Below are positions 15-33,235 of a stretch of 64,000 nt of DNA, piece after piece. The notes below the pieces were generated by a model. It saw only the letters and a program-made list of their open reading frames with translations. It had not been told where the DNA came from and ran no database searches. The DNA is taken from contig CAWJQC010000004.1 of NCBI GenBank assembly GCA_963844965.1, positions 96,001 through 160,000 on the forward strand, written 5' to 3'. Every line of letters starts with the position of its first letter. Position 1 is the stretch's first letter. This DNA comes from an uncultured bacterium (lineage in GTDB: Bacteria; Patescibacteriota; Minisyncoccia; UBA6257; 2-01-FULL-56-20). The position numbers were made by a program, and so were the translations under genes.

Positions 15-1913
15 ATGATCTCGGAACTGCCATACGAACTCACGTTTTCGCAAAAGAAATCATTGTGGGAAATCATCCAGGACCTCGCCAAAAAACAGCC
101 GATGAACCGCCTGCTCCAGGGCGACGTGGGCTCCGGCAAGACGGTTGTCGCGGCGCTCGCCGCGGTAATTACCGCGGAAAACGGGCTGCAGACCGCGTTT
201 ATGGCGCCAACCGAGGTTCTCGCGAGACAGCATTTTGAAACATTGAAAAAATTATTCGCCGGAATTCCCTCGATCCATCAACCCGTAGTTGGGCTTCTCA
301 CGTCAAGCGAAGCAAAAATCCTCTACGCGACAGACCTTGAATCAAAAATCAAAAAACCGGAGTTGCAGGAAAAAATAAAAAACGGCGAGGTAAAAATAGC
401 CATCGGCACGCACGCTTTGATACAAAAAGACGTGGCGTTCGGCAATCTTGCCTTTATCATCATTGACGAACAGCATAGATTCGGCGTCTCACAACGAGCT
501 GCGCTCGTTCGCGGACAGACGCAGAATGATAATACGCGGACAGACGCTGAACAACTACTATACGAAAAAACGACGTTTGAGATAAGAAAAAGTCTGTTTG
601 AGGTGAGAAAACAACTGGGCCTTGGTCATAAAGAAGTGGTGTATCAGAAAGCATTGGAGGAGGAGTTCAAGAAATCCGGTGTAATATTTGAGAAAGAAAA
701 GAAAATTCCTGTCGTTTATAACAAGAAAAAGATTGGCGTTTATCAACCGGATTTTGTCATAGATAATGAAGTAATTTTGGAACTTAAGGCTCTTCCCTTT
801 ATCGGCGGCATCGAAAAAAAACAGCTGTGGAATTATTTGAGGGGTTCGGATTACAAACTCGCGCTTATGGCAAACTTTGGACCGGAAAGATTATCCATAG
901 AGCGGGTAGTATACGATATTGCGCGGAGTCGGCGGCTGTCAGCGTCCGGTCAGCAACTGTCCGCGCCTATCCCCCACCTCCTCTCAATGTCCGCCACGCC
1001 AATCCCACGCACGCTCATGCTCACCGTCTTCGGCGATTTGGATATATCGCTCATCACCGAACTTCCCGCCGGCAGAAAAAATATCGTAACAAAAATAATC
1101 CCCCCACGGGGCAGGAGCGAAGCCTATGAATTCATCCGCGGCGAAGTGAGGGCCAGCCGGCAGGTTTTTGTCATCTGCCCCCGCATTGACAAACCGCAGA
1201 CAGGCGCAGACCACACGCAGACAAACGCAGACAAGACACAGACAGACGCAGACAATTTTCAGCGGCTGTCTGCGTCAAGTCAGCGACTGTCCGCGTTAAG
1301 TCCACGTAAGTCCGCGTTAGTGTGGGAAGTAAGATCCGTGAAAGAAGAATTTGAAAAATTATCCAAGAAAATTTTTCCGGATTTGCGCGTCGCCATGCTC
1401 CACGGCCAGCTCAAGCCAAAAGAAAAAGCGGGTATCATGAAGGACTTCCGCAACTACAAAATAGATATTCTCGTTTCAACTTCCGTCGTGGAAGTTGGCG
1501 TGGACGTGCCGAACGCAACAATAATGATGATTGAAGGCGCCGATCGCTTCGGGCTGGCTCAGATCTACCAATTCCGCGGACGCGTGGGGCGCGGCGAACA
1601 CCAATCCTATTGCTTCCTGTTCACGGATTCGTCCGCCAAAACTACGCGCGAGCGGCTGCAGGCCGTCCTTGAAGCCAAGAACGGCTTTGAGCTCGCCGAG
1701 AAGGACCTGAAGATCCGCGGTCCCGGCGAATTCCTCGGCACGGCGCAGACCGGCTTTCCCGACACGGCGATGAGCGGCCTCATGAACCCGGAGCTCGTGA
1801 AAGCAAGCCGCGAAGCGGCGGCAAAAATCGTCCAAAAAGATCCGCTTTTCAAAAATTATCCGCTCCTGAAAACCAAATTAAACGAGTTCCGGAAGGAAAT
1901 CCACTTGGAGTAG
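15..1913 (+). CDS. recG: RecG-like ATP-dependent DNA helicase, helicase core only (N-terminal wedge domain lies upstream of the window); carries three in-frame insertions
   Basis: Walker A GDVGSGKT, IIDEQHRFGV (DEQH), SATPIPRTL, QFRGRVGRG motifs. About 150 extra aa between motifs II and III. Confidence 0.85.
   Translation: MISELPYELTFSQKKSLWEIIQDLAKKQPMNRLLQGDVGSGKTVVAALAAVITAENGLQTAFMAPTEVLARQHFETLKKLFAGIPSIHQPVVGLLTSSEAKILYATDLESKIKKPELQEKIKNGEVKIAIGTHALIQKDVAFGNLAFIIIDEQHRFGVSQRAALVRGQTQNDNTRTDAEQLLYEKTTFEIRKSLFEVRKQLGLGHKEVVYQKALEEEFKKSGVIFEKEKKIPVVYNKKKIGVYQPDFVIDNEVILELKALPFIGGIEKKQLWNYLRGSDYKLALMANFGPERLSIERVVYDIARSRRLSASGQQLSAPIPHLLSMSATPIPRTLMLTVFGDLDISLITELPAGRKNIVTKIIPPRGRSEAYEFIRGEVRASRQVFVICPRIDKPQTGADHTQTNADKTQTDADNFQRLSASSQRLSALSPRKSALVWEVRSVKEEFEKLSKKIFPDLRVAMLHGQLKPKEKAGIMKDFRNYKIDILVSTSVVEVGVDVPNATIMMIEGADRFGLAQIYQFRGRVGRGEHQSYCFLFTDSSAKTTRERLQAVLEAKNGFELAEKDLKIRGPGEFLGTAQTGFPDTAMSGLMNPELVKASREAAAKIVQKDPLFKNYPLLKTKLNEFRKEIHLE
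505..555. repeat. GCGGACAGACGC-type palindromic oligo-repeat, in frame in recG (left flank of GxxExxY insert)
   Basis: gcggacagacgcag...cgcggacagacgctg; same motif family recurs at 926, 1196, 15287, 24724 and 24919. Confidence 0.6.
575..880 (+). other. GxxExxY / PD-(D/E)XK-like (PDDEXK_3) domain inserted in frame inside recG
   Basis: LGLGHKEVVYQKAL...ILELKAL...LANFG matches the GxxExxY family signature. Sits between helicase motifs II and III and is bracketed by oligo-repeats at 505-555 and 926-967. Confidence 0.6.
926..967. repeat. oligo-repeat (inverted orientation: ggctgtc...gtccgcg), right flank of GxxExxY insert in recG
   Basis: gagtcggcggctgtcagcgtccggtcagcaactgtccgcgcc. Confidence 0.55.
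1196..1320. repeat. compound GCAGAC/GTCTGC palindromic repeat block, in frame in recG (encodes TQTNADKTQTDADNFQRLSASSQRLSALSPRKSAL)
   Basis: gcagacaaacgcagacaagacacagacagacgcagac followed by inverted copies gctgtctgcgtc, gactgtccgcg, gtaagtccgcg. Confidence 0.6.
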
Positions 1914-2179: not shown

Positions 2180-3139
2180 CTACTGCTCCATATGACCGAC
2201 AAGGGTGCATGTATAAAAGTTACCAGTGCATTGGGATGAATTAGTAACATCCCAACAAGTTGAATAAGTCTCCAGCGCGCCACTACAAGGAGTGGTATTA
2301 GCGCATGAACTGTTGTAGTAACGAATATAAGTCATATACTGCGGGCAGAAGTAAATCGGCGTCCCGCCTGTAACTTTAAGAGTGCCGGGAATGATGACGT
2401 TGCCGTTTGCTAGAACCTGTATAGCTGCTCCGGTTGTAGTAGCTGTACCAGTATTCGGCATACTGCCGCCAATACCGACGTTGCCGGCATAGTTGATGAC
2501 TAATTTATTTGATTCTGCCGCACTAGGATAATTTCCCACCATAAGCATGGCGCCCTGATTAACATCGCCCACATCGAGCAGCACCGCATCCGCATTGGTC
2601 GTAGCCGCGGTGCCGTAGAACGTGCCGGTATTGGTATCCCTGTTCTGCTCGAACTGGGTGCCGTAATCACCGGTGTTATACAAGAACGAATAGGTGGGAT
2701 TACTAAAATCGCTGTACATCTCAAGGCCGGGGCCGGTACCGGCAGTATTTGAATATGCATAAAATTGATAGTTGGCGGGCGCCGCCGCTCCCACCCCGAT
2801 TCCGGAGGTGAATAAACCTCCTCCAGTTACCGTCAGTTTCTGGGTCGGCGCCGTATTCCCGATGCCGACGTTGCCGGAGGAATTCCAAATACCGGTGCCA
2901 GGCATCGTAACGTTGCCAGTAAAGGTCGGGCTCGCTAAAAGCGCCGCTCCGGTAACCTGCGCTACCCCGTAGTCACCAGATGCCGCCACCACGGCTCCGG
3001 TTCCGCCAAATACCGAGGTGACGCCGCCGCTCGGCCAAGCCGTGATGCAATTCGCCCCGGAGATGCAATATTGAGTGGCGTTTGCGGTAACCGTTGACGT
3101 ACAGAGCGTACCCTCCGCCTGAGTTTGTGAAATACCCAC
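2180..3139 (-). CDS. C-terminal part of tail-fibre-like surface protein 1 (Cys-rich C-terminus; joined to 2973-4625 by an apparent frameshift near 3125-3140)
   Basis: GNVGIGNTAP motif continues; ORF overlaps the upstream ORF in another frame. Confidence 0.5.
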   Translation of the reverse strand: MGISQTQAEGTLCTSTVTANATQYCISGANCITAWPSGGVTSVFGGTGAVVAASGDYGVAQVTGAALLASPTFTGNVTMPGTGIWNSSGNVGIGNTAPTQKLTVTGGGLFTSGIGVGAAAPANYQFYAYSNTAGTGPGLEMYSDFSNPTYSFLYNTGDYGTQFEQNRDTNTGTFYGTAATTNADAVLLDVGDVNQGAMLMVGNYPSAAESNKLVINYAGNVGIGGSMPNTGTATTTGAAIQVLANGNVIIPGTLKVTGGTPIYFCPQYMTYIRYYNSSCANTTPCSGALETYSTCWDVTNSSQCTGNFYTCTLVGHMEQ

Positions 3140-4625
3140 CGTAGCCGCCGGAGTTGGTGGCTAATCCATAAACTCCTACGCCGTTACCTGCCGCTGACTG
3201 TCCGGCAACCCCTACCCAGTAAGAAGCGCCGACCTGTCCGCCGAGAATCCCATTCGTTGTGGCGTTGCTATTATTTCCCGTTACCGAGCCGACCCATGAT
3301 GAATTGACGGCGCTCGTGAAACTGCCTACGCCAGCAACAACCAACGGATATGCCGGCGTCGTCGTCCCGATGCCGACGTTGCCGTTCGTGATGGAGAAAT
3401 ATGGACCACCCCCCATCCCAGTGCCAAGCGCCAAATTGAGGCCATAAGATTGTGACGTCAAATCAGCGTATGTAAATGCTCCGTTGCTGGTGGTGAACTT
3501 TATCCAATCTACGTTTGACCCGTTTGTATTGTCTAGCCGTAAGGTAGACGTACTTCCACTCTGAATATCAAGTTTTGCGACCGGCGCCGTGTTCCCGATG
3601 CCGACGTTGCCGTTGTTATTTATAAACAAGGCGGGTGACGCGCCGGATGAGTCAGAACCCTGAGTCAAAAAGGCCATTGGAGAACCGTTACTGCCGATCC
3701 GGGCCCAGTTCGCAACTGCTGCCGGTCCAAGCTGTAGCAAGGCATCGGTACCGTTAGATGTCAAGTCAAACTTGGCGAATTTTGACCCGTTCACGACATG
3801 CAACGTCGTTGCCGGCGACGCCGTCCCGATGCCGACGTTGCCGCCATATGCAAGCGTCATTATTTGGGAGTACCAACTGCTGGGGTTCTGATACCCAATC
3901 GTCAAGACCGAATTATCTGACGCTGGTGCAAAAACATACCCATTATTACTGCCAGCCATATCGCGGAGCTTGAAGGCTCCAAAGACATCAAGTGTATTTT
4001 GTGGTGACGGCGTCCCGATGCCGACCGAGCCCGAGAAATACCCGCCGCCGTAGACGGAGAGGGCCTGCGGCAAGTTGCTGGCGGAGGATGTGGTAACGCC
4101 CAGAGCGGAAGAAACAAACACACTGTGGGGGAACCCGTAGGGAACGCCGGAATCGGCCTCTAGAGAATTGAACACCGCGGGCGTGACATAGCCGGCGTTG
4201 ACGGTCCCGTTAAAATTGCCGTGGATCGTGCCGTTCACGTCAAGCTGGTAGCCAGGCGACGCCGTCCCGATGCCGACAGAACCGTCATTGCGCACGACAA
4301 GTATGGGCGACGAATTCGGATAAAGGATCTTCAATGTGTAATTCGCGGCATCAGCGGACGAAGAAGCAACGATGAGGAGTTTGGTTTCCGGCAGAGGCGT
4401 GGGCGTACCAACGCCCAGATTCCCAGCCGCATTAGTGCTTACCGCTCCCGAACCGAAACCGGGGGTGGGAGGAGGAGAGGCAAACGCGTAGTAGGTAGTA
4501 GGTAGTAGGTAGTAGGTAGTAGCGAGAATGACGAAAAACAAAACGTGCGGCGCAAAACTCGGACGCACACCGTAAAACTTGCGGCGGAGCTTTTGCTGTT
4601 TTTGGAACAAATCTGCGTCCATCAT
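2973..4625 (-). CDS. tail-fibre-like surface protein 1 (N-terminal part; paralog of 8555-11680)
   Basis: N-terminus about 95% identical to gene 8555-11680. KQQKLRRKF plus hydrophobic anchor, TTYYLLPTTYY, repeated NGNVGIGT(A/T)SP motifs. Block 3346-3850 is near-identical to 9464-9960. Confidence 0.6.
   Translation of the reverse strand: MMDADLFQKQQKLRRKFYGVRPSFAPHVLFFVILATTYYLLPTTYYAFASPPPTPGFGSGAVSTNAAGNLGVGTPTPLPETKLLIVASSSADAANYTLKILYPNSSPILVVRNDGSVGIGTASPGYQLDVNGTIHGNFNGTVNAGYVTPAVFNSLEADSGVPYGFPHSVFVSSALGVTTSSASNLPQALSVYGGGYFSGSVGIGTPSPQNTLDVFGAFKLRDMAGSNNGYVFAPASDNSVLTIGYQNPSSWYSQIMTLAYGGNVGIGTASPATTLHVVNGSKFAKFDLTSNGTDALLQLGPAAVANWARIGSNGSPMAFLTQGSDSSGASPALFINNNGNVGIGNTAPVAKLDIQSGSTSTLRLDNTNGSNVDWIKFTTSNGAFTYADLTSQSYGLNLALGTGMGGGPYFSITNGNVGIGTTTPAYPLVVAGVGSFTSAVNSSWVGSVTGNNSNATTNGILGGQVGASYWVGVAGQSAAGNGVGVYGLATNSGGYGGYFTNSGGGYALYVNGYRKRHSILHLRGELHHGLAERRRHLGIWRNRSRGGGIW
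4488..4521. repeat. (GGTAGTA)n heptamer array inside the signal-peptide region of surface protein 1
   Basis: gtaggtagtaggtagtaggtagtaggtagtag encodes TTYYLLPTTYY. Confidence 0.8.
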
Positions 4626-4661: not shown

Positions 4662-4745
4662 TTAATTGTTTCGGGGCGACAATCTCATAGCTTTATTATA
4701 TAAGAACAGGGAAAGATATGTAGAAAGGGGTGTGCATAGGCGCGA
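4662..4745 (-). promoter_or_regulatory. conserved leader module (TATATAAT -10-like box) plus remnant mini-ORF ATGAGATTGTCGCCCCGAAACAATTAA, shared with locus at 12308-12915
   Basis: catagctttattatataagaacagggaaaga(c/t)atgta(a/g)aagggg recurs at 12846-12915. ttgttt(c/t)ggggcgacaa recurs at 12308. Confidence 0.45.
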
Positions 4746-4859: not shown

Positions 4860-5567
4860 CTAGTGGCCGACGATGGGTGGAAGACCGGCCTGGTAGCGGC
4901 GGTAATTCCCCATGTACCGGTCCGCCACCTGAATATTCCGCACGCCGTACCAAACGTGAACCGTGCTAAGGTAACCGGCAAAGCCGATGCTTGCGAGACG
5001 CTCGGCCCTCACCATTCTCCTGCCCCACTTATGTCCCCCCCATTTATGCTCTGTCCAGCGAGGGATAGCCGAAGAAAAGTAGGAAAAAACGACATCGAAC
5101 GCCGAGGCGCTCCCTAACACCCCAGCAATATTGCGATTGCCAAATTGGGTATATAGGGAGTCCGTCTCACGGGGGCCCTGCTGGCTAGCATAACGCAAAC
5201 CGTTGCTAGCGACGTACTCTGGAATAAAGGGTGGCGTAGAGAGGGAACGGAACGTGGTTATGTTGTCAAACGCAAATGGCCCGCGCTCAACACCCCACAT
5301 CCAAGCCTGTGTCCTCTCAAGCTTGCTCTGGTCCCGGTTTAACTTGCCGCCAGGCCAAGCCATAACCCTAAACACCTTATCAAAGGTTGATGGCTCAACC
5401 GGTGCCGCCGAACGCAAGGGCGAGATAGCGGGTGCGAGTGCCGGTGCAGACGCGGCGGATGCCGCCACGGGCGTTGACGCTAAGGGCAGTTCGGTAAGAC
5501 CGTCTGCCGGAAACGCGCGAACCGAAATGATTGTCAAGATTGTCAACAAAAGCACCAGTCGCTTCAT
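4860..5567 (-). CDS. secreted hypothetical protein
   Basis: Signal peptide MKRLVLLLTILTIISVRA followed by an Ala/Pro-rich linker; no recognisable domain. Confidence 0.4.
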   Translation of the reverse strand: MKRLVLLLTILTIISVRAFPADGLTELPLASTPVAASAASAPALAPAISPLRSAAPVEPSTFDKVFRVMAWPGGKLNRDQSKLERTQAWMWGVERGPFAFDNITTFRSLSTPPFIPEYVASNGLRYASQQGPRETDSLYTQFGNRNIAGVLGSASAFDVVFSYFSSAIPRWTEHKWGGHKWGRRMVRAERLASIGFAGYLSTVHVWYGVRNIQVADRYMGNYRRYQAGLPPIVGH

Positions 5568-5791
5568 AACGACCTCCTCAAAAAGATTTAATTTAATTGC
5601 GCAAAGCAATTTGGCTACTCCCAAGAATAACCAAATCGCTTTGCGCAAGCAATATATTCATTTTTCAAGATACTTGCCTATCTATGCTAATTATAGCACA
5701 AATAAACAACCTGTCAACCCCCACCTTTTTCCGAAAAGGTGGGGGTCAAGTGGCCGCGGCGGCTGACCCGCTGAAGCGACGATACCCTACA

Positions 5792-6046
5792 ACTCATAAA
5801 TCTCATCTCGCTTGCCTATTTTGAGTATATAAATTGCGCCATTTCTAACGTCAAATACCAACCTATAATCGCCCACGCGAAATCTGAACTCCCCGCCGCG
5901 GTTGTCAGCCAAACGCTTGGCAAACCTCAACGGATTATCCTCTGACGCATAAATGCGCATCTTCTTTGCTTTGCGATGCGCACTTGAACTTCTCTCGGCA
6001 GGGATTCCAACTGCTTAGCCGCCCGCTTGGCATAGAAAATCTTCGT
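5792..6046 (-). pseudogene. RelE/ParE-family toxin, decayed copy (start ATG->ACG plus 5-nt insertion)
   Basis: Aligned to intact copy 7812-8066: cttcgttaca vs cttcattaca, and ttctttgctttgcgatg vs ttcttcgcgatg. Confidence 0.6.
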
Positions 6047-6222
6047 TACAATCCCAACTTCTTAAACAGCTTATCCTGCGATATAGTTTTTTTTGCCTTG
6101 ATTTCTTTTCTCGCTTCGCGGACATCCAAAATATGCGCGAGGTAGCCAAGCAGGGCGCCGAAGCGAGCATCCGTTTTCCTCAAACGCTCGTATTCTTGTT
6201 TTGGTATAGTAACCGTGGTCAT
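6046..6222 (-). CDS. type II antitoxin (58 aa, MTTVTIPKQEYERLRKTDARF...), copy A
   Basis: Identical to 8066-8242; lies immediately upstream of the RelE-like toxin with a 1-nt TAATG overlap. Confidence 0.55.
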   Translation of the reverse strand: MTTVTIPKQEYERLRKTDARFGALLGYLAHILDVREARKEIKAKKTISQDKLFKKLGL

Positions 6223-6345
6223 ATAAGTGCATTATAGTAAACCGGCGGCGGATATCAACCCCCACACCAAACGAGGACTTTCCGGGTCCCGCGCCGAAGG
6301 CGCATGTCCTCGTTAGGATTCTCGATAGGAATTGCCGGTGCGACA

Positions 6346-6564
6346 TTACAACAGAGAAACAAACTGCTCCGGTGCAAGTTCGGCATCACGTAGTATTTTG
6401 CGAAGCAGAGAAACATCCACTGCCTTATAGTTCGGCACCGTTACGGATTTCTTGCCGGGACAGGACAAACGAATATGGCTGCCGCGCTGGCGAACTTCGC
6501 GATAACCGAACTTTGCCAAAGCAGAAATAATCTTGCGGCCGGAGATAACAGGCAGTTTAGACAT
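6346..6564 (-). CDS. hicA: HicA-family toxin (mRNA interferase)
   Basis: 72 aa, RGSHIRL motif, paired with upstream HicB. Confidence 0.7.
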   Translation of the reverse strand: MSKLPVISGRKIISALAKFGYREVRQRGSHIRLSCPGKKSVTVPNYKAVDVSLLRKILRDAELAPEQFVSLL

Positions 6565-6570
6565 GACGAG

Positions 6571-6822
6571 CTATACGGCAATTGTATGTAAGCTGATTTC
6601 CTGCGGCTTGTAATCCTGCAAAATTTGCCTGGACTGCTTTTCTTCCAAAATAAGCATTATAACCTCTCGGATATTGCGGAGCGCCTCGTCAATCGTCTTG
6701 CCCTGCGCATAACATCCTTCAAAAACAGGGCATTCAACAACATAAAACCCGCTCTCTCCTTTTTCGGCGAGGAGCGGCAATTGCCGGCCGCGGCCTATAA
6801 ATTTTGCTCTTGTTCTTGCCAT
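6571..6822 (-). CDS. hicB: HicB-family antitoxin
   Basis: FYVVECPVFEGCYAQGKTIDEALRNIREVI. Listed ORF extends to 6840; MARTRAKF is the likely start. Confidence 0.65.
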   Translation of the reverse strand: MARTRAKFIGRGRQLPLLAEKGESGFYVVECPVFEGCYAQGKTIDEALRNIREVIMLILEEKQSRQILQDYKPQEISLHTIAV

Positions 6823-7101
6823 AGTGAAATAATACCACAACCCTTTAGGCGGTCAAGTGAAATTGGTAGCCAAAATCGCCCTGCCACACTAAAACCCCTT
6901 TAAATTCTTCCAGCAAGCAAACTGCCCGCGCTTTTCCGCGCGGGCTTTTTTTAAATCCCCGCTGAATACCCAGCCGAGACGTGGCGGAGACGAAACAGTG
7001 AGATATCTTTCTTTCCTCGCTTCGCAAGAAATCTTGCCGTTCCTCCGCGAGCCAATATCTACGGCCCCCGGCTGGAGGGATGAAATGAAATGGACGCTCA
7101 A

Positions 7102-7296
7102 CTATTTCTGTTTAATCTCTCTAATACCGAGGTCCCGGCAGATTTTCTTTGCCAAAAATTCATTGATTTCGCTATGGCGGGGCACCGTAGACGAACGTCT
7201 GACTTTGGGGTTAAAAAAGACGCTGTGCTTGGCGCCTTCCCGAACAAAAACACACCCCTCATGCTCAATGTGGCAAATTAAAACAACTCGCTTCAT
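7102..7296 (-). CDS. hicA: HicA-family toxin, second pair
   Basis: 64 aa, HSEINEFLAKKICRDLGI, YcfA/HicA-like. Confidence 0.65.
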   Translation of the reverse strand: MKRVVLICHIEHEGCVFVREGAKHSVFFNPKVRRSSTVPRHSEINEFLAKKICRDLGIREIKQK

Positions 7297-7299
7297 TCA

Positions 7300-7515
7300 T
7301 CAAACTGTAAGCAGCTGCCGCGTCAACTTCTGTTTGCCGGCCTCGGCATCAGCCAGCGCCCGGTTGGTTTCCAAAATTAGCCGAAGCGCTTCTTTAAGAT
7401 TTTCTTTTACTTCCTTCACGCTTTTCCCTTGAGTATTTACCCCGGGCACTTCCTCTATCCAGCCGACATACCATTTACCGCTTTTTTTAAACACGGCTGT
7501 AAATTTGTATTTCAT
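7300..7515 (-). CDS. hicB: HicB-family antitoxin, second pair
   Basis: MKYKFTAVFKKSGKWYVGWIEEVPGVNTQGKSVKEVKENLKEAL. The longer listed ORF (to 7626) probably has an artefactual N-terminal extension. Confidence 0.6.
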   Translation of the reverse strand: MKYKFTAVFKKSGKWYVGWIEEVPGVNTQGKSVKEVKENLKEALRLILETNRALADAEAGKQKLTRQLLTV

Positions 7516-7811
7516 GACTGCCATACATTTAAGATAATCCCAAAGCATGTAGCTGTCAACTCCTCTCAACTCCCGAGAAAACCCAGATGGCGAGCTTCTC
7601 CCTGCCTCGATAGGGTAGAAAAACAACTCAAACAGCCCAACGAAATTCGTTGGGCTGGATTTTTTTAACCAATGGCGTCACCCGCCGTTGAATTCCTTAA
7701 TATCTTTTGGCGAACACCGTTTAAACTACCTGTCAACCCCCACCTTTTTTCCGAAAAGGCGGGGGTCAAGCGGCCGCGGCGGCTGACCCGCTGAGCTGAA
7801 GCGACGATACC

Positions 7812-8066
7812 CTACAACTCATAAATCTCATCTCGCTTGCCTATTTTGAGTATATAAATTGCGCCATTTCTAACGTCAAATACCAACCTATAATCGCCCA
7901 CGCGAAATCTGAACTCCCCGCCGCGGTTATCAGCCAAACGCTTGGCAAACCTCAACGGATTATCCTCTGACGCATAAAAGCGCATCTTCTTCGCGATGCG
8001 CATTTGAACTTCTCTCGGCAGGGATTCCAACCGCTTAGCCGCCCGCTTGGCATAGAAAATCTTCAT
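7812..8066 (-). CDS. RelE/ParE-family toxin (intact copy)
   Basis: 84 aa, ...RFRVGDYRLVFDVRNGAIYILKIGKRDEIY, typical RelE/ParE C-terminus. Confidence 0.7.
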   Translation of the reverse strand: MKIFYAKRAAKRLESLPREVQMRIAKKMRFYASEDNPLRFAKRLADNRGGEFRFRVGDYRLVFDVRNGAIYILKIGKRDEIYEL

Positions 8067-8242
8067 TACAATCCCAACTTCTTAAACAGCTTATCCTGCG
8101 ATATAGTTTTTTTTGCCTTGATTTCTTTTCTCGCTTCGCGGACATCCAAAATATGCGCGAGGTAGCCAAGCAGGGCGCCGAAGCGAGCATCCGTTTTCCT
8201 CAAACGCTCGTATTCTTGTTTTGGTATAGTAACCGTGGTCAT
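8066..8242 (-). CDS. type II antitoxin, copy B
   Basis: 58-aa ORF below the 60-aa track cutoff; stop overlaps toxin ATG (TAATG). Confidence 0.55.
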   Translation of the reverse strand: MTTVTIPKQEYERLRKTDARFGALLGYLAHILDVREARKEIKAKKTISQDKLFKKLGL

Positions 8243-8274
8243 ATTAAGTGCATTATAGCAAACCGGCGGCGGAT

Positions 8275-8345
8275 GTCAACCCCCACACCAAACGAGGACG
8301 CGCGCCTTCGGCGCAGGACCCGGAAAGTCCTCGTTTGGTGTGGGG
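8275..8345. repeat. 20-bp-stem palindromic hairpin element (cccccacaccaaacgaggac / gtcctcgtttggtgtggggg)
   Basis: Perfect inverted repeat; related copies at ~6250-6310 and 33165-33235; second hairpin family cccccacctttttccgaaaaggtggggg at 5714 and 7733. Confidence 0.75.
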
Positions 8346-8554
8346 GTAAATTATGCCGAAAAAGCCGGAAGGAAAGATGCGATCTATGTTTCTCCCGCAA
8401 GAATACCCCCGCCGCAGGCGGGGGATGAATTGCGGTTCGAGAAACATAAACCCCGCCGATGGCGGGGTGAACTACCACCTAACATGCTGCATGTGCTAAG
8501 TATTTCGTGCGCAGCACGGCAGTTGAGATACCACCGCTGTGAGGCGGTGGTAGT

Positions 8555-11500
8555 TCATTTCAGAAGAGCGTCAACTTTTTCTTGGAGCGCGGCGTTCTGC
8601 GCCTGAAGAGCGCTGATCTCTTGTTGCTGCTCCTTGATGGATTCTATCATCGGCGCGATAAGCCCAGTATAATCCAGACCAAGGGTTCCGCTCGCGTCAG
8701 TTTCCACCAACTGCGGGAAAACCGTCTGTACATTCTGCGCGGTTAAACCGAGCTGCTCTCCACTGCCCATCAGTTTTGTATCTTTCCATTCAAAGGAAAC
8801 CGGCGTCAGTAACTCAAGCTCCGCAAGCGAACCCGACAGTGGAACTATATTCTTCTTCAAACGCTCGTCGGAGCTATTTATCCACTGCCCAGCATTGTTT
8901 GTATACTCGCCGTGGGCTCCCTGAAAGTCATACGTACTGCCGGAACCATAGACGCCGATTGCAGCAGTTGAAAACACCCCATACCCTGCGGGATTACCGA
9001 AGTATCCAGCGGAACCGTTCGCGCCCGCGGTATCCGAATATCCTTCCACCCCAACCCCAGTACCAGCGTTGTAGCCATAGACGGCGGGAAGACCATTACC
9101 AGTACCGTAGCCATAGACCCCATACCCAGTCGCACCAGCAGTGCCATAGACACCATACATAGAGCCGGTGCCATAAATCCCTGCCCCAGCTTGCCCGGCG
9201 CCACCGACGCTTAATGTTGACGCCGGTGCCGTCGTCCCGATGCCGACGTTGCCGTTCGTGATGGAGAAATATGGACCACCCCCCATCCCAGTGCCAAGCG
9301 CCAAATTGAGGCCATAAGATTGTGACGTCAAATCAGCGTATGTAAATGCTCCGTTGCTGGTGGTGAACTTTATCCAATCTACGTTTGACCCGTTTGTTTT
9401 GTCTAGCCGTAAGGTAGACGTACTTCCACTCTGAATATCAAGTTTTGCGACCGGCGCCGTGTTCCCGATGCCGACGTTGCCGTTCGTGATGGAGAAATAT
9501 GGACCACCCCCCATCCCAGTGCCAAGCGCCAAATTGAGGCCATAAGATTGTGACGTCAAATCAGCGTATGTAAATGCTCCGTTGCTGGTGGTGAACTTTA
9601 TCCAATCTACGTTTGACCCGTTTGTATTGTCTAGCCGTAAGGTAGACGTACTTCCACTCTGAATATCAAGTTTTGCGACCGGCGCCGTGTTCCCGATGCC
9701 GACGTTGCCGTTGTTATTTATAAACAAGGCGGGTGACGCGCCGGATGAGTCAGAACCCTGAGTCAAAAAGGCCATTGGAGAACCGTTACTGCCGATCCGG
9801 GCCCAGTTCGCAACTGCTGCCGGTCCAAGCTGTAGCAAGGCATCGGTACCGTTAGATGTCAAGTCAAACTTGGCGAATTTTGACCCGTTCACGACATGCA
9901 ACGTCGTTGCCGGCGACGCCGTCCCGATGCCGACGTTGCCGGAACCTAAAATTGTCACGAGATCCGTTTTCGAAGAAGCGCCCGTTTTTTCACTAAACTG
10001 GAAAGCGGTGGTGGGATTGTTATAAACATTATAAAAATCAACTTCTGCATTTCCTCCCGTATAATTCCAACCGACGGCCAGACCACCAAGGCCATCACTC
10101 ACCGGTAAAGATTGCGTGTTATATGAAGTTTTCAGGAACCCACCCTCAACATCGAGCTTGTAACCTGGTGCCGCCGTCCCGATGCCGACCGAGCCCGTGA
10201 AATATCCGCCGCCGTAGACGGAAAGCGCCTGCGGACCTACGGCACTGCCCGAAGTGGCAACCGCCAACGAAGAGGAAACGACGACGCTGGCCGGGAAAAG
10301 ATAATTGCCCGTGCTGACAACGTTTGAACCGAAATACCCGGCCGCCACGTTGCTGGCGTTCACGGTGCCACCCGAAGAAGCGCAGTCGGAACCGGTGCCA
10401 GAAACAACGCCCGCAGCGCTTACGTGCAAACACTGGATAGAACCGCTGATTCCAGAAACAGTAAGGGTGTTGGCACTTGCGCCACTGCTGAAAGTTTGAA
10501 GCGCGGTCCAGGTGTTCGCATGTCCAAGATTCAATGCGGCGGACACGGCGCCCGCGGTTGGAGATATCGTTAGAGTTCCGACGCCGCTGTCGCTGACCGA
10601 GGTTACGCTGCCGCCTGCCGCAGACCAAGAAAGCGTGCCAGCGCCGTTGTTCGTGAGCACAGTACTTGCACCGCCTTGCGCGGCCGGCCAGGAATAAGTG
10701 ATACTGTTGATTTTCGCGATGTTGCCGTTATTGTCAACCTGGAATTGACTGCTCGCGCCGACGCTAAAAAGCGACGCTGGCCCCGTCGTCCCGATGCCGA
10801 CGTTGCCGCCCGCAGTTATCCTCATTCTCTCAGCAGCTCCAGCTGAAGTGTCAACCCTAAATATAAGACCATTCGTCGCAGCGCTCGCCTTGACATCTAT
10901 AAACCCTCCCCCAGAAGAATCACTACTGAAAAGTCTCATGCCGTTAACACCGACGCTCGTATCACCTCCAAAGAATAGGTTGCCGTTGACGTTGCCTGCT
11001 GCCATAGGCAAAAGCATATTTGACGTAAGCTGAAGCTGTTGAGTTGGGTTCGCCGTCCCGATGCCGACGTTGCCGCTGAAATACCCGCCGCCGTAGACGG
11101 AGAGGGCCTGCGGCAGATTGCTCGCGGTTGTCGTTGTGATTCCAAGACCGGAAGTGATAAACACGCTGTGGGGAAACCCGTAGGGAACGCCGGAATCGAG
11201 TTGGAGAGAGTTAAACACCCCGGGCGAGATGTTGCCGGCGCTTACGAGACCGCTCACGCTGCCATAAATGGACATGCCGCTGGCGAGATTCACACTGCCG
11301 GCATTAGTAAGATTTGAAGTGCCGATACCGACGGTGCCATCGTTGCGCACGACGAGAAGCGGAACAGCAGAGCCGGGCTGGACAACCTGCAGAGCGAAAT
11401 TTGAGCTGTCGGTTGACGAAGCCACAATCAGAAGCCTCACGTTGGCGGAGGGTGTTGACGTTCCAATGCCCAGATTGCCCGCGGCGTTAACGCTTATCGC

Positions 11501-11680
11501 TCCCGAACCGTAACCGGGAGTGGGAGGAGGAGAAGCAAACGCATAGTAGGTAGTAGGTAGTAGGTAGTAGGTAGTAGCGAGAATGACGAAAAACAAAACG
11601 CGCGGCGCAAAACTCGGACACGCACCGTAAAACTTGCGGCGGAGCTTTTGCTGTTTTTGGAACAAACCTGCGTCCATCAT
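8555..11680 (-). CDS. tail-fibre-like surface protein 2 with peptidase S74-type C-terminal intramolecular chaperone domain
   Basis: C-terminus has SSDERLKKNI...LTAQNVQTVFPQLV...coiled coil; repeated NGNVGIGT motifs; N-terminal anchor plus TTYYLLPTTYY. Confidence 0.7.
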   Translation of the reverse strand: MMDAGLFQKQQKLRRKFYGACPSFAPRVLFFVILATTYYLLPTTYYAFASPPPTPGYGSGAISVNAAGNLGIGTSTPSANVRLLIVASSTDSSNFALQVVQPGSAVPLLVVRNDGTVGIGTSNLTNAGSVNLASGMSIYGSVSGLVSAGNISPGVFNSLQLDSGVPYGFPHSVFITSGLGITTTTASNLPQALSVYGGGYFSGNVGIGTANPTQQLQLTSNMLLPMAAGNVNGNLFFGGDTSVGVNGMRLFSSDSSGGGFIDVKASAATNGLIFRVDTSAGAAERMRITAGGNVGIGTTGPASLFSVGASSQFQVDNNGNIAKINSITYSWPAAQGGASTVLTNNGAGTLSWSAAGGSVTSVSDSGVGTLTISPTAGAVSAALNLGHANTWTALQTFSSGASANTLTVSGISGSIQCLHVSAAGVVSGTGSDCASSGGTVNASNVAAGYFGSNVVSTGNYLFPASVVVSSSLAVATSGSAVGPQALSVYGGGYFTGSVGIGTAAPGYKLDVEGGFLKTSYNTQSLPVSDGLGGLAVGWNYTGGNAEVDFYNVYNNPTTAFQFSEKTGASSKTDLVTILGSGNVGIGTASPATTLHVVNGSKFAKFDLTSNGTDALLQLGPAAVANWARIGSNGSPMAFLTQGSDSSGASPALFINNNGNVGIGNTAPVAKLDIQSGSTSTLRLDNTNGSNVDWIKFTTSNGAFTYADLTSQSYGLNLALGTGMGGGPYFSITNGNVGIGNTAPVAKLDIQSGSTSTLRLDKTNGSNVDWIKFTTSNGAFTYADLTSQSYGLNLALGTGMGGGPYFSITNGNVGIGTTAPASTLSVGGAGQAGAGIYGTGSMYGVYGTAGATGYGVYGYGTGNGLPAVYGYNAGTGVGVEGYSDTAGANGSAGYFGNPAGYGVFSTAAIGVYGSGSTYDFQGAHGEYTNNAGQWINSSDERLKKNIVPLSGSLAELELLTPVSFEWKDTKLMGSGEQLGLTAQNVQTVFPQLVETDASGTLGLDYTGLIAPMIESIKEQQQEISALQAQNAALQEKVDALLK
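9236..9691. repeat. 228-bp (76-aa) tandem duplication inside surface protein 2 (single copy in paralog at ~3361-3590)
   Basis: Two copies differ by 1 nt (N/K); unit NGNVGIGNTAPVAKLDIQSG...GGGPYFSIT. Confidence 0.85.
11544..11577. repeat. (GGTAGTA)n heptamer array in signal-peptide region of surface protein 2
   Basis: gtagtaggtagtaggtagtaggtagtaggtagtag. Confidence 0.8.
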
Positions 11681-12319: not shown

Positions 12320-12852
12320 TTATTGTTTTGGGGCGACAACGAGGTAACCGATGGGACCTTTTTCCGGACCGCCGCAGGAAGCGCAGTAAAAGGTAAACTT
12401 GCCTTCAAGATAGGCCTGGAACTGGAACGTTTTGCTTGTCCCCTTTGGGGCAGAGAGATTCAGACCGTAATCGGGCTGGGTAAGGTCATAATTTCCGTCA
12501 ACCGCGTTCACGGTCAGGTTTATGACATCAAACTTGCGGACGATGATGGTGTCCGGTGTAAAGGCGTTGGCTTCAATCTTTATGGAAAAGTCGCGGTTGC
12601 TCGCGCTTGAGACCTGGCTCGCGGGGCTCACGGTCTGCGGAATGGCAACACCCTGCGGGACATTCTGGGAGTTCTGGTTGGGCACGACGATGTTCTGAGG
12701 CGCCACTTCGCGGGTCGCGGTAGCGTTGGGCTTGGCGTTGCCGCCGGCCTGAATGGCCGAGGTTCCGGGCTGGCGTTCTACGAGAAGGAAGATGCCCACA
12801 AAGACCACGACCACGACAACCGCCACAATGGCAATTATTTTGTTTTTGCTCA
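12320..12852 (-). CDS. membrane-anchored cupredoxin-like domain protein (copper ligands not conserved)
   Basis: TM helix, Thr/Pro/Gln linker, C-terminal ...FDVINLTVNAVDGNYDL...GKFTFYCASCGG...GYLVV beta-sandwich pattern; start assumed at MSKNKII. Confidence 0.45.
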
Positions 12853-12915
12853 TAGCTTTATTATATAAGAACAGGGAAAGACATGTAAAAGGGGGGTGTG
12901 CATAAGTGCGGAAAC
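12853..12915 (-). promoter_or_regulatory. conserved leader module (copy of 4681-4745) directly 5' of 12320-12852
   Basis: Near-identical 60-bp block with TATATAAT box. Confidence 0.45.
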
Positions 12916-16101: not shown

Positions 16102-16176
16102 GGCCCTGTCGTCTAGTCTGGCCTAGGACACAGGCTTTTCAAGCCTGGTACACGGGTTCGAATCCCGTCGGGGCTG
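16102..16176 (+). tRNA. tRNA-Glu (anticodon UUC)
   Basis: Cloverleaf: acceptor GGCCCUG/CGGGGCU (two G-U pairs), anticodon loop uuUUCaa, T-loop GGTTCGAATCC; no encoded CCA. Confidence 0.75.
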
Positions 16177-28084: not shown

Positions 28085-29686
28085 CTAAAATTTTCGGGCT
28101 GTAGTATAGCGGCAGTACGCACCCTTGGGGTGGGTGTAGACCGGGTTCGACTCCCGGCAGCCCGACATAACGGAACTTGCATCAACTTTTTCAAAATCAA
28201 CGCGCTCGCTTCGCTCGCTGTCTTTATGCACGAGGGGCAAATGGAGAAGCAAATCCGTAACTACTTTCCATTCGTCTTTCCAATCCCAAAAAATTTCCCT
28301 GTCCCGCAGGCGGCGGTTCGTTCCGATTTTCCCCGCAAAGGATTTTATGGCGTCGAATTCTTCGGACGAAGCCAGTTTTGCCGCGTGAAACGCGGATATA
28401 ATCCATTCCCGCAATGGTTCGATCCAATAGTTTCCCCTCCGCCCGCAATCATCATTCTGCTTGGACAAGGAAACTTTAGTTTTGATAAGCTCGTCCTTTT
28501 TGGCAAGATAGATTTCTTTTTCAATTGAGCCGTCCAAAAAGGCGTTCACGAGCTTGTCTAATTTCTGCTCGGTTTCCTTGAGTTGGGTTTCGAGATTGCG
28601 GGCGGAATTCTCCGAAGATTGGATGCCTTCTTTTTCCCACGCTTCCACTTGAACCAGCATTTTCTCTTTCCAATCTTCGGGGATGGCGACCTCCGAGATT
28701 TTCTCTTTGAGCTGTTGCACGAGTAAATCTTCGCGCAGATAGCTTTGTGAACACGGGCCAAGCCGTTTCGTACAGCGATAATACTTGTAGAGGCCGCCGT
28801 TCCCTTTCGCGTATTGGGCGGTGATGGCCGCGCCGCACTCGCCGCAGGTGAGCAATCCGGTGAACGGGAAATAATGACGCTTCTTGGAGTGGCGCGGCTT
28901 GGCTTTGTTCCTCAAAACCTCCTGCACTTTCTTGAAGGTCGCCTCGGGAACTATCGGCAGGAAATTGCCGACATAGCTCTCGCCGTTGTGTTTTATCACT
29001 CCGAGATAGGCGGAGTTCGTGAGCATCCGTTGGAGCGTGGCCTTCGGCATGGGATTTCCCGTACCGCTCACGATGCCGAAAAACTGGAAGCGGGCGGCGA
29101 GCGTCTTTAGGGTGTGCCTCCCTTCGGCGTATTCCTCAAAAACTTTTCTGATGATTCTCGCCCGCACGGGGTCGGGTTCGATGTTCCGCGTCTTGGGATT
29201 GTTGAGGTAACCGAAGGGGGCTTTGGTCGGCCACTCGCCGCGCCGCAATTTCTGCCGGATGCCGCGCTTCACGTTCTCGGAAAGGTTATCGCTGTAATAC
29301 TTGGACTGGCCGAAGGCGACCTGCAACATGAAAAGTCCCTGCGGGGTCGGCTCAAACCAGAACGTCGGGAACTTCAGCGAGGCAATCTTCTGGGTATCGA
29401 TGAGGTAGATGATTTGGCCGCCGTCTATGGAGTTGCGAGCCAATCGGTCGGGATGCCACGCCAATATGCCGACGGGTTCTTTGCTCTCGTGAATTTTCTT
29501 GATAAGGTCGCCGAACACTTCCCTGCCCGGACTTTTCGCGCTCTTGCTCTCGATGAAGGTCTCGATAATCTTTATATGTTCCCGTTTAGCGAACTCGGCA
29601 AGCTCCGCGAGTTGGGCTTCAATGCTCATCACCTGCCGTTCCTCGTCCTCGGTGGACTTGCGGGCATAGAGGAAATATGGGGTCAT
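28085..29686 (-). CDS. large serine recombinase (integrase/invertase type); 3' end reads through the tRNA-Pro 3' end
   Basis: N-terminal YARKSTEDEERQVMSIEAQ resolvase catalytic domain, recombinase domain, zinc ribbon CGECG...YYRC, coiled coil. Last ~27 codons are the reverse complement of tRNA-Pro. Alternative C-terminus ...SQLLNAVRTYFIENPRD is preserved at 30050-30260. Confidence 0.8.
   Translation of the reverse strand: MTPYFLYARKSTEDEERQVMSIEAQLAELAEFAKREHIKIIETFIESKSAKSPGREVFGDLIKKIHESKEPVGILAWHPDRLARNSIDGGQIIYLIDTQKIASLKFPTFWFEPTPQGLFMLQVAFGQSKYYSDNLSENVKRGIRQKLRRGEWPTKAPFGYLNNPKTRNIEPDPVRARIIRKVFEEYAEGRHTLKTLAARFQFFGIVSGTGNPMPKATLQRMLTNSAYLGVIKHNGESYVGNFLPIVPEATFKKVQEVLRNKAKPRHSKKRHYFPFTGLLTCGECGAAITAQYAKGNGGLYKYYRCTKRLGPCSQSYLREDLLVQQLKEKISEVAIPEDWKEKMLVQVEAWEKEGIQSSENSARNLETQLKETEQKLDKLVNAFLDGSIEKEIYLAKKDELIKTKVSLSKQNDDCGRRGNYWIEPLREWIISAFHAAKLASSEEFDAIKSFAGKIGTNRRLRDREIFWDWKDEWKVVTDLLLHLPLVHKDSERSERVDFEKVDASSVMSGCRESNPVYTHPKGAYCRYTTARKF
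28095..28165 (+). tRNA. tRNA-Pro (anticodon GGG)
   Basis: Acceptor CGGGCUG/CAGCCCG, anticodon loop uuGGGgu, T-loop GGGTTCGACTCCC. Confidence 0.7.
28163..28321. repeat. IR-A left arm (recombinase 3' coding end), inverted copy at 30050-30208
   Basis: ~159 bp identical in inverted orientation; inner boundary at the tRNA-Pro 3' end. Confidence 0.85.
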
Positions 29687-30580: not shown

Positions 30581-30719
30581 CTCCCCCAACCCCTCCTTTG
30601 GGGCGCGCCGAGGGCGGTTGCGGCAACCCTTGGAACAGGGTATGGTTGAGATATCCACGCATAGGCGATGAAGCTCGCCGCAACCGCCCTTAGGGGCTGA
30701 TAGCTTCTATCTCAAAAAG

Positions 30720-32489: not shown

Positions 32490-32561
32490 GCGTTCATATT
32501 ATAGCGATGCCCAGAGTGCGTCAAGTATGACCACGGCCATGCGGCCGTGAGCTATTTTGGG

Positions 32562-33164: not shown

Positions 33165-33235
33165 ACCCCCACACCCAACGAGGAGTGCTGGTAACAACGC
33201 ACAAGGCATTGCTCCTCGTTAGGTGTGGGGGTGAA
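33165..33235. repeat. palindromic hairpin element (cccccacacccaacgaggag...ctcctcgttaggtgtggggg), same family as 8275-8345
   Basis: Imperfect 20-bp stems. Confidence 0.65.

Follow-up and report, generated by a model that had tools for sequence, protein, structure and literature searches.

A duplicated RelE module with a decayed toxin copy in a toxin-antitoxin cluster of an uncultured patescibacterium, and the palindromic element beside it

We describe a cluster of toxin-antitoxin (TA) genes in a stretch of 64,000 nucleotides (nt) from an uncultured bacterium (GTDB lineage Bacteria; Patescibacteriota; Minisyncoccia; UBA6257; 2-01-FULL-56-20). The stretch, hereafter the window, comprises positions 96,001 to 160,000 of the forward strand of contig CAWJQC010000004.1 (GenBank assembly GCA_963844965.1), and positions are given in its own numbering. 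Every gene of the TA region lies on the minus strand (Table 1): a module of a RelE-type toxin and a small putative antitoxin occurs twice, its right copy with an intact toxin and its left copy with a broken one, and two HicBA pairs lie between the copies. The reading that we favour, at a probability of roughly three in four, is that a recent duplication (~2% divergence) created a redundant left toxin which then decayed, that the region is a cluster of four TA operons, and that the palindromic hairpins found in it are not parts of the TA systems.

The repeats that frame the cluster had been recognised in an earlier note, made from the letters of this DNA, as direct repeats of ~600 base pairs (bp) at 5704-6310 and 7729-8345. 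A repeat search and pairwise alignment confirmed them with bounds that are close to these: two direct copies of ~616 bp (5702-6317 and 7722-8338), ~98% identical in long blocks and spaced by 2020-2025 nt from start to start. When the loop of the large hairpin is excluded, the copies stand ~11 substitutions and four indels apart; the latter comprise 1 nt in the loop of a small hairpin, 5 nt (GCTGA) 3' of the toxin stop, 5 nt within the toxin and 1 nt just 5' of the antitoxin ATG.

The right copy encodes an intact toxin of 84 amino acids (aa), and here the antitoxin stop and the toxin start overlap as TAATG (8068..8064), exactly as the note had read them. Its assignment of this gene to the RelE/ParE toxins also holds: in a Pfam scan the protein matches PF05016 (ParE_toxin) over its full length (35.7 bits against a cut-off of 23, E = 1.4e-8), and a PDB sequence search returned RelE-type proteins as its closest solved relatives, namely 2khe (E = 1e-7), M. 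tuberculosis RelE1 (9g12), Rv2866 (3g5o), M. jannaschii RelE3 (3bpq) and P. horikoshii aRelE (1wmi). Its 66 homologues form a tight group of 82-84-aa proteins, of which the source-named members are labelled Patescibacteria, Nomurabacteria or Sungbacteria. Across 18 aligned homologues, five residues (R53, R55, R60, R78 and Y82) never vary, and the intact copy has all of them; we take them to sit where E. coli RelE has its catalytic K52, K54, R61, R81 and Y87. We read the protein as a likely ribosome-dependent mRNA endonuclease, that is, as a RelE rather than a ParE gyrase poison.

In the left copy, the toxin appears to be disabled by three independent changes, one of them confirmed in a second assembly. 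Its start codon at 6046..6044 is ACG in place of ATG, and the same ACG is seen in contig L001 (described below); five extra nt at ~5967-5972 (GCAAAGCAAAG against GCGAAG), a slippage-type duplication, break the reading frame; and Phe30, invariant in the 18 homologues, is replaced by Ile. The alignment therefore agrees with the note, which had called this toxin dead on the grounds of the ACG start and the 5-nt insertion. What remains is a C-terminal open reading frame (ORF) of 57 codons (5960..5787), which matches the C-terminal half of PF05016 at 29.4 bits.

The antitoxin, by comparison of the two copies, has not changed at all: the note had described an intact 58-aa antitoxin in both repeats, and the ORFs 8242..8066 and 6222..6046 are indeed the same at 177 of 177 nt. 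The protein itself is without a name. It matched nothing at the curated thresholds in Pfam, NCBIfam, PADLOC or the PDB sequences; 57 members of its family have no Pfam family in common and their profile matches nothing in the PDB; and neither profile nor structure placed it among the RelB, ParD/ribbon-helix-helix (RHH), Phd/YefM, HigA/helix-turn-helix (HTH) or AbrB/MazE proteins. For none of the six TA proteins did NCBIfam or PADLOC yield a match. The note had looked to profiles of RelE/ParE, of HicA and HicB, and of Phd/YefM or another antitoxin family to confirm its small ORFs: RelE/ParE, HicA and HicB-1 do score above their cut-offs, but the 58-aa antitoxin fits no named family, Phd/YefM included.

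A word-index homologue search with the antitoxin yielded little, namely three proteins with two relatives among them, each of these two directly 5' of a PF05016 gene. The full family became visible because an exhaustive profile search was used: at E <= 1e-3 it has 84 cluster representatives, of which 38 reach E <= 1e-10, and most are 58-67 aa long. At all nine loci sampled (9/9), the antitoxin homologue lies directly upstream of a RelE homologue of the 83-84-aa subfamily, which it abuts or overlaps in most of them, and the nine share the motif (V/I)xIPKxEYxRLKxL...DIxEARxExKxGKxISQExLFKxLGL. Small adjacent genes with a pairing that is conserved across genomes, as expected of a type II TA system, are thus what we see here (the TAATG overlap; 9/9 loci). 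This is, on the available sequences, a real, conserved and unnamed family of putative antitoxins, partner of one RelE subfamily, and the 58-aa protein behaves as the cognate antitoxin that would neutralise the RelE toxin.

An AlphaFold2 model of the 58-aa protein, made with the family alignment, has a predicted local distance difference test score (pLDDT) of 95.3; in it, an extended N-terminus is followed by a long helix (residues 8-42), and a second, short one (49-56) lies at the C-terminus. A Foldseek search of the PDB with this model gave two matches only, both of them antitoxins and both non-significant (ParD 6xrw_D, E = 2.2; RelB1 9g12_C, E = 3.3), which we do not count as evidence. Neither Pfam nor the predicted fold offers a recognisable DNA-binding domain. 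A related protein from locus L043 shows a faint similarity of its N-terminal strand to RHH_1 (E = 0.08), a mere hint. At that locus (10306-10770) a different TA-like pair stands directly after recG, and its antitoxin shares with the window antitoxin only the N-terminal motif MTTITIPKKEYERLK; this suggests that a shared N-terminal module may have been joined to different toxin-binding tails.

The module as a whole resembles the RelBE/ParDE-type II modules (PF05016) in that the antitoxin precedes the toxin with a stop/start overlap, and in having a toxin that exceeds the Pfam cut-off and is related to solved RelE proteins. It is unlike them in that its antitoxin matches no RelB, ParD/RHH, Phd/YefM or other family and is predicted to form a long helix followed by a short C-terminal one; furthermore, the mRNAs of the window look leaderless.

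Two HicB-HicA pairs with the antitoxin first had been placed between the repeats by the note, and there they are: HicA-1, HicA-2 and HicB-1 score above their Pfam cut-offs, and HicB-2, at 26.3 bits in the same scan, is 1 bit under the UPF0150 cut-off of 27.3. The conserved His is kept in both HicA proteins (GSH in HicA-1, KH in HicA-2). These pairs are like HicAB systems (PF07927; PF15919/UPF0150) in that a HicB-like protein is encoded beside each above-cut-off HicA. They differ in order, since here HicB comes first whereas in E. coli hicA precedes hicB, and in their HicB proteins, which are short (74-83 aa) and, in the Pfam scan, without a C-terminal RHH or HTH DNA-binding domain.

Sigma-70-type consensus scans, from which all our promoter scores (x/12) derive, found a promoter or promoter-like site in front of each of the four antitoxin genes (Table 1). 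A fifth predicted promoter, at 5717-5690, is perfect (12/12) and would serve the gene 5567..4860. The promoter of the left RelE module differs from that of the right by TTGATA for TTGACA, by loss of the TG extension and by a 1-nt deletion before the ATG; it is predicted to be somewhat weaker but intact. All four antitoxin ATGs (8242, 6222, 6822 and 7524) lie 6-9 nt 3' of a -10 hexamer and have no Shine-Dalgarno sequence, and for this reason the TA mRNAs look leaderless or nearly so. A terminator-like hairpin is found 3' of each TA module. Because each module thus has its own putative promoter and its own terminator-like hairpin, the region reads as four operons that would be transcribed separately.

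We return to the duplication and to the distribution of changes between its copies. The antitoxin has none in 177 nt, against ~7 coding events in the 255 nt of the toxin: the start-codon change, the frameshift and a silent change beside it, R/Q13, M/V22, F/I30 and a second silent change. Were these events to fall at random over the 432 coding nt, the chance of finding them all in the toxin would be (255/432)^7, or ~0.025 by a simple binomial. The homologues supply polarity: F30 is invariant, which places the origin of I30 in the left copy, and Q13 is the common state, which places that of R13 in the intact right copy; both copies have therefore changed since the duplication. This pattern fits relaxed or negative selection on a redundant toxin.

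The ends of the repeats are equally instructive. The downstream promoter, which belongs to gene 5567..4860, is whole in the left copy, where the distal arm of the large palindrome has been reduced to 12 nt; in the right copy it is the palindrome that is whole, and the downstream promoter that breaks off ~15 nt past the -35 box. Each copy, then, has one native and one novel junction, as expected if the module was duplicated with the HicBA block between the copies. We propose that the large palindrome had been inserted at the TTGA of the module's -35 box, and that a recent segmental duplication, one breakpoint of which would lie inside this 67-bp palindrome, then gave rise to two ~616-bp RelE segments with the two HicBA modules between them; the HicBA block may have entered at the junction of the duplicated module, or template switching may have captured it. 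The left toxin, now redundant, would then have lost its start codon and taken the 5-nt slippage frameshift and F30I. The antitoxin would now be made from two genes and the toxin from one, which we regard as a safe intermediate in TA decay and not as a dedicated anti-addiction device. The breakpoint in the palindrome, together with the inversion of its loop between the copies (see below), points to a replication or recombination event that the palindrome itself may have provoked; the order of events is our reconstruction.

The earlier note had seen in the left copy a textbook anti-addiction arrangement, namely an orphan antitoxin kept beside a dead toxin. Put as an explanation, the orphan would be retained by selection, either as immunity against incoming RelE toxins of mobile elements and phages or so that the intact module can be lost. 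The chromosomal antitoxin of an anti-addiction module neutralises a plasmid toxin. Both orphan antitoxins and anti-addiction are topics of the TA literature (e.g., PMC7354431, PMC7192599). As in such modules, an expressed-looking antitoxin does stand here beside an inactivated toxin: the orphan is intact and identical to the functional antitoxin, its 11/12 promoter is kept and the changes cluster in the toxin (p ~0.025). Unlike those modules, however, this one has an intact counterpart only 2 kb away that makes the identical antitoxin together with a live toxin, so that the orphan adds no new specificity, only antitoxin dose; no matching incoming element is known; and the recent duplication is sufficient to explain the arrangement. 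Moreover, at ~2% divergence the duplication is so young that the absence of change in 177 nt is a weak sign of selection, and the left promoter has been slightly weakened (TTGATA, TG extension lost). No plasmid or phage with this TA family came to light, though neither phage nor plasmid collections were searched for the RelE/antitoxin module itself. The anti-addiction claim is consequently not supported: we consider a selected module of this kind unlikely, and a young duplication the simpler account.

The duplication with toxin decay could also be an illusion of assembly, in which two strain variants of one RelE module, one intact and one broken, were joined in a single contig, or in which the 5-nt difference is an error; the source contig is, after all, metagenome-assembled. 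The Logan assembly of run ERR10755942 offers an independent view: its contig L001 (1812 bp) is 100% identical to window 6013-7824, and encodes both the 58-aa antitoxin and HicA-1. Within it lie the two novel junctions (left copy/HicA-1 side; HicB-2 side/right copy), the left antitoxin with the ACG start beside it, and each of the HicBA pairs. It stops short of the outer junctions and of the 5-nt indel, as an artefact would allow, yet it has the HicBA block between a 5' part and a 3' part of a RelE module, an arrangement that needs either two copies or a circle. At either end L001 terminates 30-31 nt past the last copy-specific base, from where 31-mers are common to both copies; such end points fit a real two-copy repeat in a k = 31 graph, with both variants in the reads. 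The specific flanks of the copies (a truncated palindrome in one, a truncated promoter in the other) also speak against an artefact, and three independent disabling or altering changes are unlikely as errors, one of them (ACG) being confirmed by L001. Exact-protein look-ups with the 84-aa toxin and with the 57-aa residual ORF returned no matching record, and hence no cross-check of the 5-nt indel by that route. We hold an artefact to be quite improbable and the duplicated arrangement to be probably genuine.

The hairpins of the region require separate treatment. The note had placed palindromic hairpins at the edges of the modules, and the palindromes are real: those at 5718-5745, 7737-7765 and 8280-8346 fold far better than shuffled sequence (z = -5.2, -3.7 and -7.2). 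They are not, however, edge signals of the TA modules, since homologous RelE modules elsewhere are without them; in locus L008, a homologous promoter (TTGACATCCGAC) is preceded by ordinary sequence and no palindrome. This absence suggests to us that copy 8280-8346 was probably inserted secondarily, at the TTGA of the -35 box or beside it. The large hairpin is, as we read it, not part of the TA system: it is a copy of an element of ~74 bp, like a miniature inverted-repeat transposable element (MITE), that is widespread in genomes of the candidate phyla radiation (CPR).

The element is made of two arms, one of 20 nt and one of 21 nt in which a single base bulges out (CCCCCACACCAAACGAGGAC / GTCCTCGTT(A)TGGTGTGGGGG across the family), on either side of a ~30-nt loop that contains a small GC hairpin. 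Copies measure 58-139 bp overall, with a mode of 74 bp and arms of 20-21 bp. The outer 12 bp of the arms are nearly invariant and compensatory changes occur at five inner-stem pairs: pairing holds in 92% of cells, versus 45-59% with the partner slid, and none of 500 shuffles reached the observed covariation score. Between copies 8280-8346 and 6259-6317 the 27-nt loop is inverted (3/27 mismatches after flipping). Both loop orientations are found across the family, with the bulge always in the same arm, and the inversion within the window is thus an instance of a recurrent family property.

A search for the arm CCCCCACACCMAACGAGGAS among genomes, one per species, found 27 exact stretches, almost all in CPR metagenome-assembled genomes: Saccharibacteria, Nealsonbacteria, Parcubacteria, Liptonbacteria, Minisyncoccales and Jorgensenbacteria. 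Two matches carry non-CPR labels, a lone arm without a partner in Polyangiaceae and a 5.3-kb Gammaproteobacteria contig with three full copies, which may be misbinned. A genome may hold several copies (e.g., three full and one mini copy in 8 kb of L018). Identical 4-nt flanks (TAAA, TCAA, TTTA, TGAA or TTGA) bound 15 of 30 copies, and those of copy 8280-8346 (TCAA/TAAA) match at three of four positions. Several hallmarks of a MITE are thereby represented: terminal inverted repeats, small size, no coding capacity, target-site duplication, multiple copies and an empty site (below). An autonomous partner with a transposase and the same ends was not seen in ~0.55 Mb of sampled loci, a very limited search; no copies were found in IMG/VR viral contigs; and Rfam has no family for any hairpin of the window or for canonical copies of the element. 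We also considered the 20-nt arm as part of a conserved RNA gene and rejected this, given its copies in unrelated coding genes and at intergenic sites, the target duplications and the empty site.

Some copies lie inside genes, which we define by a reading frame that stays open for at least 50 codons on both sides of the element. All 13 of these are in frame (length 2 mod 3, such that element and duplication together make whole codons), versus 8 of the 17 other copies (Fisher p = 0.003). Among the host proteins, as read from the sequence, are LeuRS, Mfd, TsaD, RecJ, a histidine kinase, a protein-isoaspartate methyltransferase, a geranylgeranyl-reductase-like enzyme and UvrA, the last with two full copies or more. 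In the housekeeping proteins of this list (UvrA, LeuRS, TsaD, RecJ and Mfd), element and duplication add 24-30 codons. TsaD provides the empty site: the two closest homologues of the L029 protein (P0155, 93% identical; P0156, 91%) lack exactly the 27-aa insert, and so do distant ones. The same TsaD ORF begins MNPHTKQG...YPCYGVGV (5208-5290), a second and diverged copy (5213-5283) that is fused to the N-terminus; this N-terminal copy is common to the two closest homologues and absent from others. In L018 (~4990-7830), a single UvrA-like ORF of 1038 codons apparently holds two full copies and a 33-bp mini-hairpin with its frame kept, and a third full copy lies just past the ORF.

This distribution bears on two further explanations of the hairpins. 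One is that the cluster is a mobile array, made of integron-like cassettes or a composite transposon, in which attC-like hairpins moved the RelE module: the modules are all co-oriented with hairpins between them, and the RelE module has CCCCCAC...GTGGGGG palindromes with TCAA flanks at both ends. But repeat homology runs on for ~15 nt after the small hairpin and, at the large one, breaks off within the distal arm; a Pfam scan of neighbouring ORFs found no integrase or transposase beside the island; the hairpins, on inspection of their sequence, are without the attC R''/R' motifs RYYYAAC/GTTRRRY; the modules bring promoters of their own, whereas cassettes are promoterless; and homologous modules elsewhere lack the palindromes. 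We consider such an array very improbable. Less probable still is the notion that the RelE module has its operator, and not a mobile element, in the large palindrome, to which the antitoxin or the TA complex would bind: it does abut the -35 box, and TA operators usually are palindromes at the promoter, but copies of this palindrome lie within genes such as UvrA, LeuRS, TsaD and RecJ and, in many CPR genomes, at intergenic sites that have nothing to do with TA modules, the homologous L008 promoter lacks it, and the orphan copy keeps its promoter with half a palindrome. Integron cassettes with attC sites, the composite transposon and the TA operator are all three rejected on these counts.

We consider it very probable that the family of palindromic elements, by our reading a MITE-like family into which the large hairpin falls, is real and mobile. 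The data support, or are at least compatible with, an element that duplicates a 4-bp T-rich target, including the TTGA of -35 boxes, whose outer 12-14 bp are invariant across CPR classes and whose loop flips recurrently. Its closest analogues known to us in behaviour are the Rickettsia palindromic elements (RPEs), short palindromic repeats of a reduced genome that lie in frame in many genes, the host protein gaining a peptide (PMC10969869). The CPR element resembles them in its 13/13 in-frame genic copies (UvrA, LeuRS, TsaD, RecJ, Mfd etc.). It is shorter, however (~74 versus ~150 bp), half of its copies have 4-bp target duplications, and its outer arms are invariant across classes of a phylum-level radiation whereas RPEs belong to one genus; the two are likened by features and not by sequence. 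By this analogy, the element would be tolerated in frame inside essential housekeeping proteins and would be a CPR counterpart of the RPEs.

Another comparison is with the Correia elements, MITEs of Neisseria that are 100-200 bp long, mostly intergenic and endowed with an IHF site; promoters are provided by them or lie next to them, RNase III cleaves them, and they are reported to invert (PMC10969869). Both are small MITEs with terminal inverted repeats that often lie just 5' of genes, where the end of the element and its flank create or adjoin promoter hexamers; both can form hairpins in transcripts; and the CPR element likewise occurs in both loop orientations and abuts TTGACA boxes. Correia elements duplicate TA, whereas the CPR element duplicates 4 bp (T[TGAC][TGA]A), has a length of ~74 bp and is frequently intragenic and in frame. 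Literature searches (for MITEs or palindromic elements in CPR bacteria, and for the arm sequence) found no description, although papers beyond the searched library could hold one; a 2024 review of prokaryotic MITEs does not mention CPR (PMC10969869). On balance we lean slightly towards the family being as yet undescribed; that it is at once real, mobile and undescribed we put at a little short of an even chance.

The small hairpins are of a different size and, in part, of a different character. The flank of hairpin 5718-5745 forms the -35 box (TTGACA) of the 12/12 promoter at 5717-5690. The terminator stem thus overlaps the -35 box of the next promoter (5714-5749) in what looks like a terminator-promoter fusion, and the same arrangement is seen in L002. 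We suggest that the small hairpins act as terminators whose 3' flank makes the next -35 box. Hairpin 5718-5745 shares its ends (CCCCCAC...GTGGGGG) with the large element, and a 26-bp look-alike with TCAA/TCAA flanks exists in L035; it may be a mini-derivative of the palindromic element family.

Several observations weigh against our reading of a recent duplication, a decayed toxin and hairpins foreign to the TA systems. Its weakest link is the derivation of the small hairpin just given, as the placement in the family is based on shared ends (CCCCCAC...GTGGGGG) and TCAA flanks only. The absence of a recognisable DNA-binding domain from the antitoxin leaves autoregulation unexplained. The residual 57-codon ORF of the RelE C-terminus has an ATG of its own and could still be expressed. 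The lack of any change in the antitoxin could partly reflect gene conversion in place of selection, and the statistics are built on few events. The closest relative stands at 64% RecG identity, and the duplication is thus neither dated nor polarised by near kin. Finally, L001 covers window 6013-7824, and for the 5-nt insertion and the outer junctions (X/left copy, right copy/Y, X and Y being the outer flanks) the evidence is a single assembly.

Table 1. Positions of the repeats, genes, putative signals and palindromic element copies in the window
Feature	Position	Strand	Remarks
Left repeat copy	5702..6317	-	Promoter, antitoxin, dead toxin, small hairpin; boundary 12 nt inside the palindromic element's distal arm
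Right repeat copy	7722..8338	-	Promoter, antitoxin, intact RelE toxin, small hairpin
Promoter, right RelE module	8252..8279	-	TTGACA, 16 nt, TATAAT; 12/12, TG extension; ATG 9 nt past the -10 box
58-aa putative antitoxin, right copy	8066..8242	-	Family without a class; two helices predicted
Intact RelE-type toxin, 84 aa	7812..8066	-	PF05016; R53, R55, R60, R78, Y82 present
Small hairpin, right copy	7737..7765		Promoter 3' of the hairpin cut off by the repeat boundary
Terminator-like hairpin	7633..7657		Between right RelE module and HicBA-2 promoter
Promoter-like site, HicBA-2	7531..7559	-	10/12; ATG 7524 lies 6 nt past the -10 box
HicB-2 antitoxin, 74 aa	7300..7524	-	From ATG 7524 (gene caller chose 7548); UPF0150, 26.3 bits vs 27.3; directly 5' of HicA-2; own promoter-like site
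HicA-2 toxin, 64 aa	7102..7296	-	PF07927, 34.9 bits vs 27, E = 1.7e-8
GC-rich terminator-like hairpin	6924..6945		Between HicA-2 and HicBA-1 promoter
Promoter-like site, HicBA-1	6829..6856	-	10/12; ATG 6 nt past the -10 box
HicB-1 antitoxin, 83 aa	6571..6822	-	PF15919, 30.4 bits vs 27; HicB-like N-terminal domain only; gene call in L001
HicA-1 toxin, 72 aa	6346..6564	-	PF07927, 55.5 bits vs 27, E = 6.4e-15
Promoter, left (orphan) antitoxin	6231..6258	-	TTGATA, 16 nt, TATAAT; 11/12, no TG extension
58-aa putative antitoxin, left copy	6046..6222	-	Identical to right copy at all 177 nt; also in L001
RelE toxin pseudogene	5787..6046	-	Start ACG (6046..6044), +5 nt, F30I; ACG also in L001
Small hairpin, 28 bp	5718..5745		CCCCCACC...GGTGGGGG; flanks TCAA/TCAA; terminator-like for the RelE operon
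Complete palindromic element, 67 bp	8280..8346		20-bp perfect arms CCCCCACACCAAACGAGGAC / GTCCTCGTTTGGTGTGGGGG, 27-nt loop; abuts the -35 box
Truncated element copy	6259..6317		Proximal arm full, loop inverted, distal arm 12 nt only; duplication breakpoint
Third, diverged element copy	33166..33231		Flanks TGAA/TGAA

The island lies between two paralogous surface-protein genes on the minus strand, 4625..2973 and 11680..8555; the second of these ends in a Peptidase_S74 (tail-fibre chaperone) domain. Almost the same N-terminus is found in both, and 300-bp segments recur between them at 90-99% identity (3353-3652 vs 9223-9750), on account of which the whole neighbourhood of the island is, as far as can be read from it, recombination-prone. 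The larger gene contains 228-bp tandem repeats, and 47-nt repeats are found at 4684-4730 and 12849-12895. Between this 1041-aa gene and the palindromic element, the interval 8395-8552 holds three more GC-rich hairpins (8406-8424, 8450-8468 and 8529-8552), for which Rfam gave only sub-threshold noise.

The nearest relative of the window in the JGI metagenomes is L043, whose RecG is 64% identical. There, recG is followed by the different small antitoxin mentioned above (MTTITIPKKEYERLK...), by a small gene that is RelE/ParE-like by eye and has no Pfam match, and by a large surface protein whose end resembles, again by eye, tail-fibre-chaperone (Peptidase_S74-type) sequence. The different TA-like pair at this place means that TA occupancy of the locus is variable. 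The RecG-like helicase of the window (15-1913, plus strand) carries a PD-(D/E)XK_3 nuclease domain (residues 186-297) between its DEAD and Helicase_C domains, and the relative in L043 looks the same by eye. Further along, ~0.9 kb (32,500-33,450) with no convincing ORF or Rfam match is GC-rich, has many local hairpins and ends with the third element copy; an RNA gene that has diverged, or a gene in decay, may lie here. Elsewhere in the window Rfam recognises a fluoride riboswitch (30655-30716, plus strand; RF01734, 47.8 bits), and the only other matches at gathering score are tRNAs at 16102-16176 and 28095-28165.

Nomurabacteria-type contigs (L008-L011) carry a dense island of TA and abortive-infection genes, with AbiEii pairs, a ParE-like gene, this RelE family, RelB-YafQ and Gp49/HTH, from which we gather that clustering of TA systems is common in CPR genomes. 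The TA island of the window is in itself routine: RelE, HicA and AbiE-type clusters are common in CPR contigs, and a duplicated module with a decayed toxin is an expected intermediate. Less routine is the putative antitoxin, which defines a family of ~58-67 aa with no relative in Pfam, NCBIfam or the PDB, placed directly 5' of one RelE subfamily at nine loci of Patescibacteria-type contigs; this conserved family is easy to model (pLDDT 95) and easy to test. The palindromic element, if confirmed and indeed undescribed, would affect gene calling and protein-family alignments in CPR genomes through spurious 25-aa inserts and split genes. If confirmed, it would also be a marker of horizontal exchange among these uncultured bacteria, and one would have to ask what enzyme moves it, given how scarce transposases are in these genomes.

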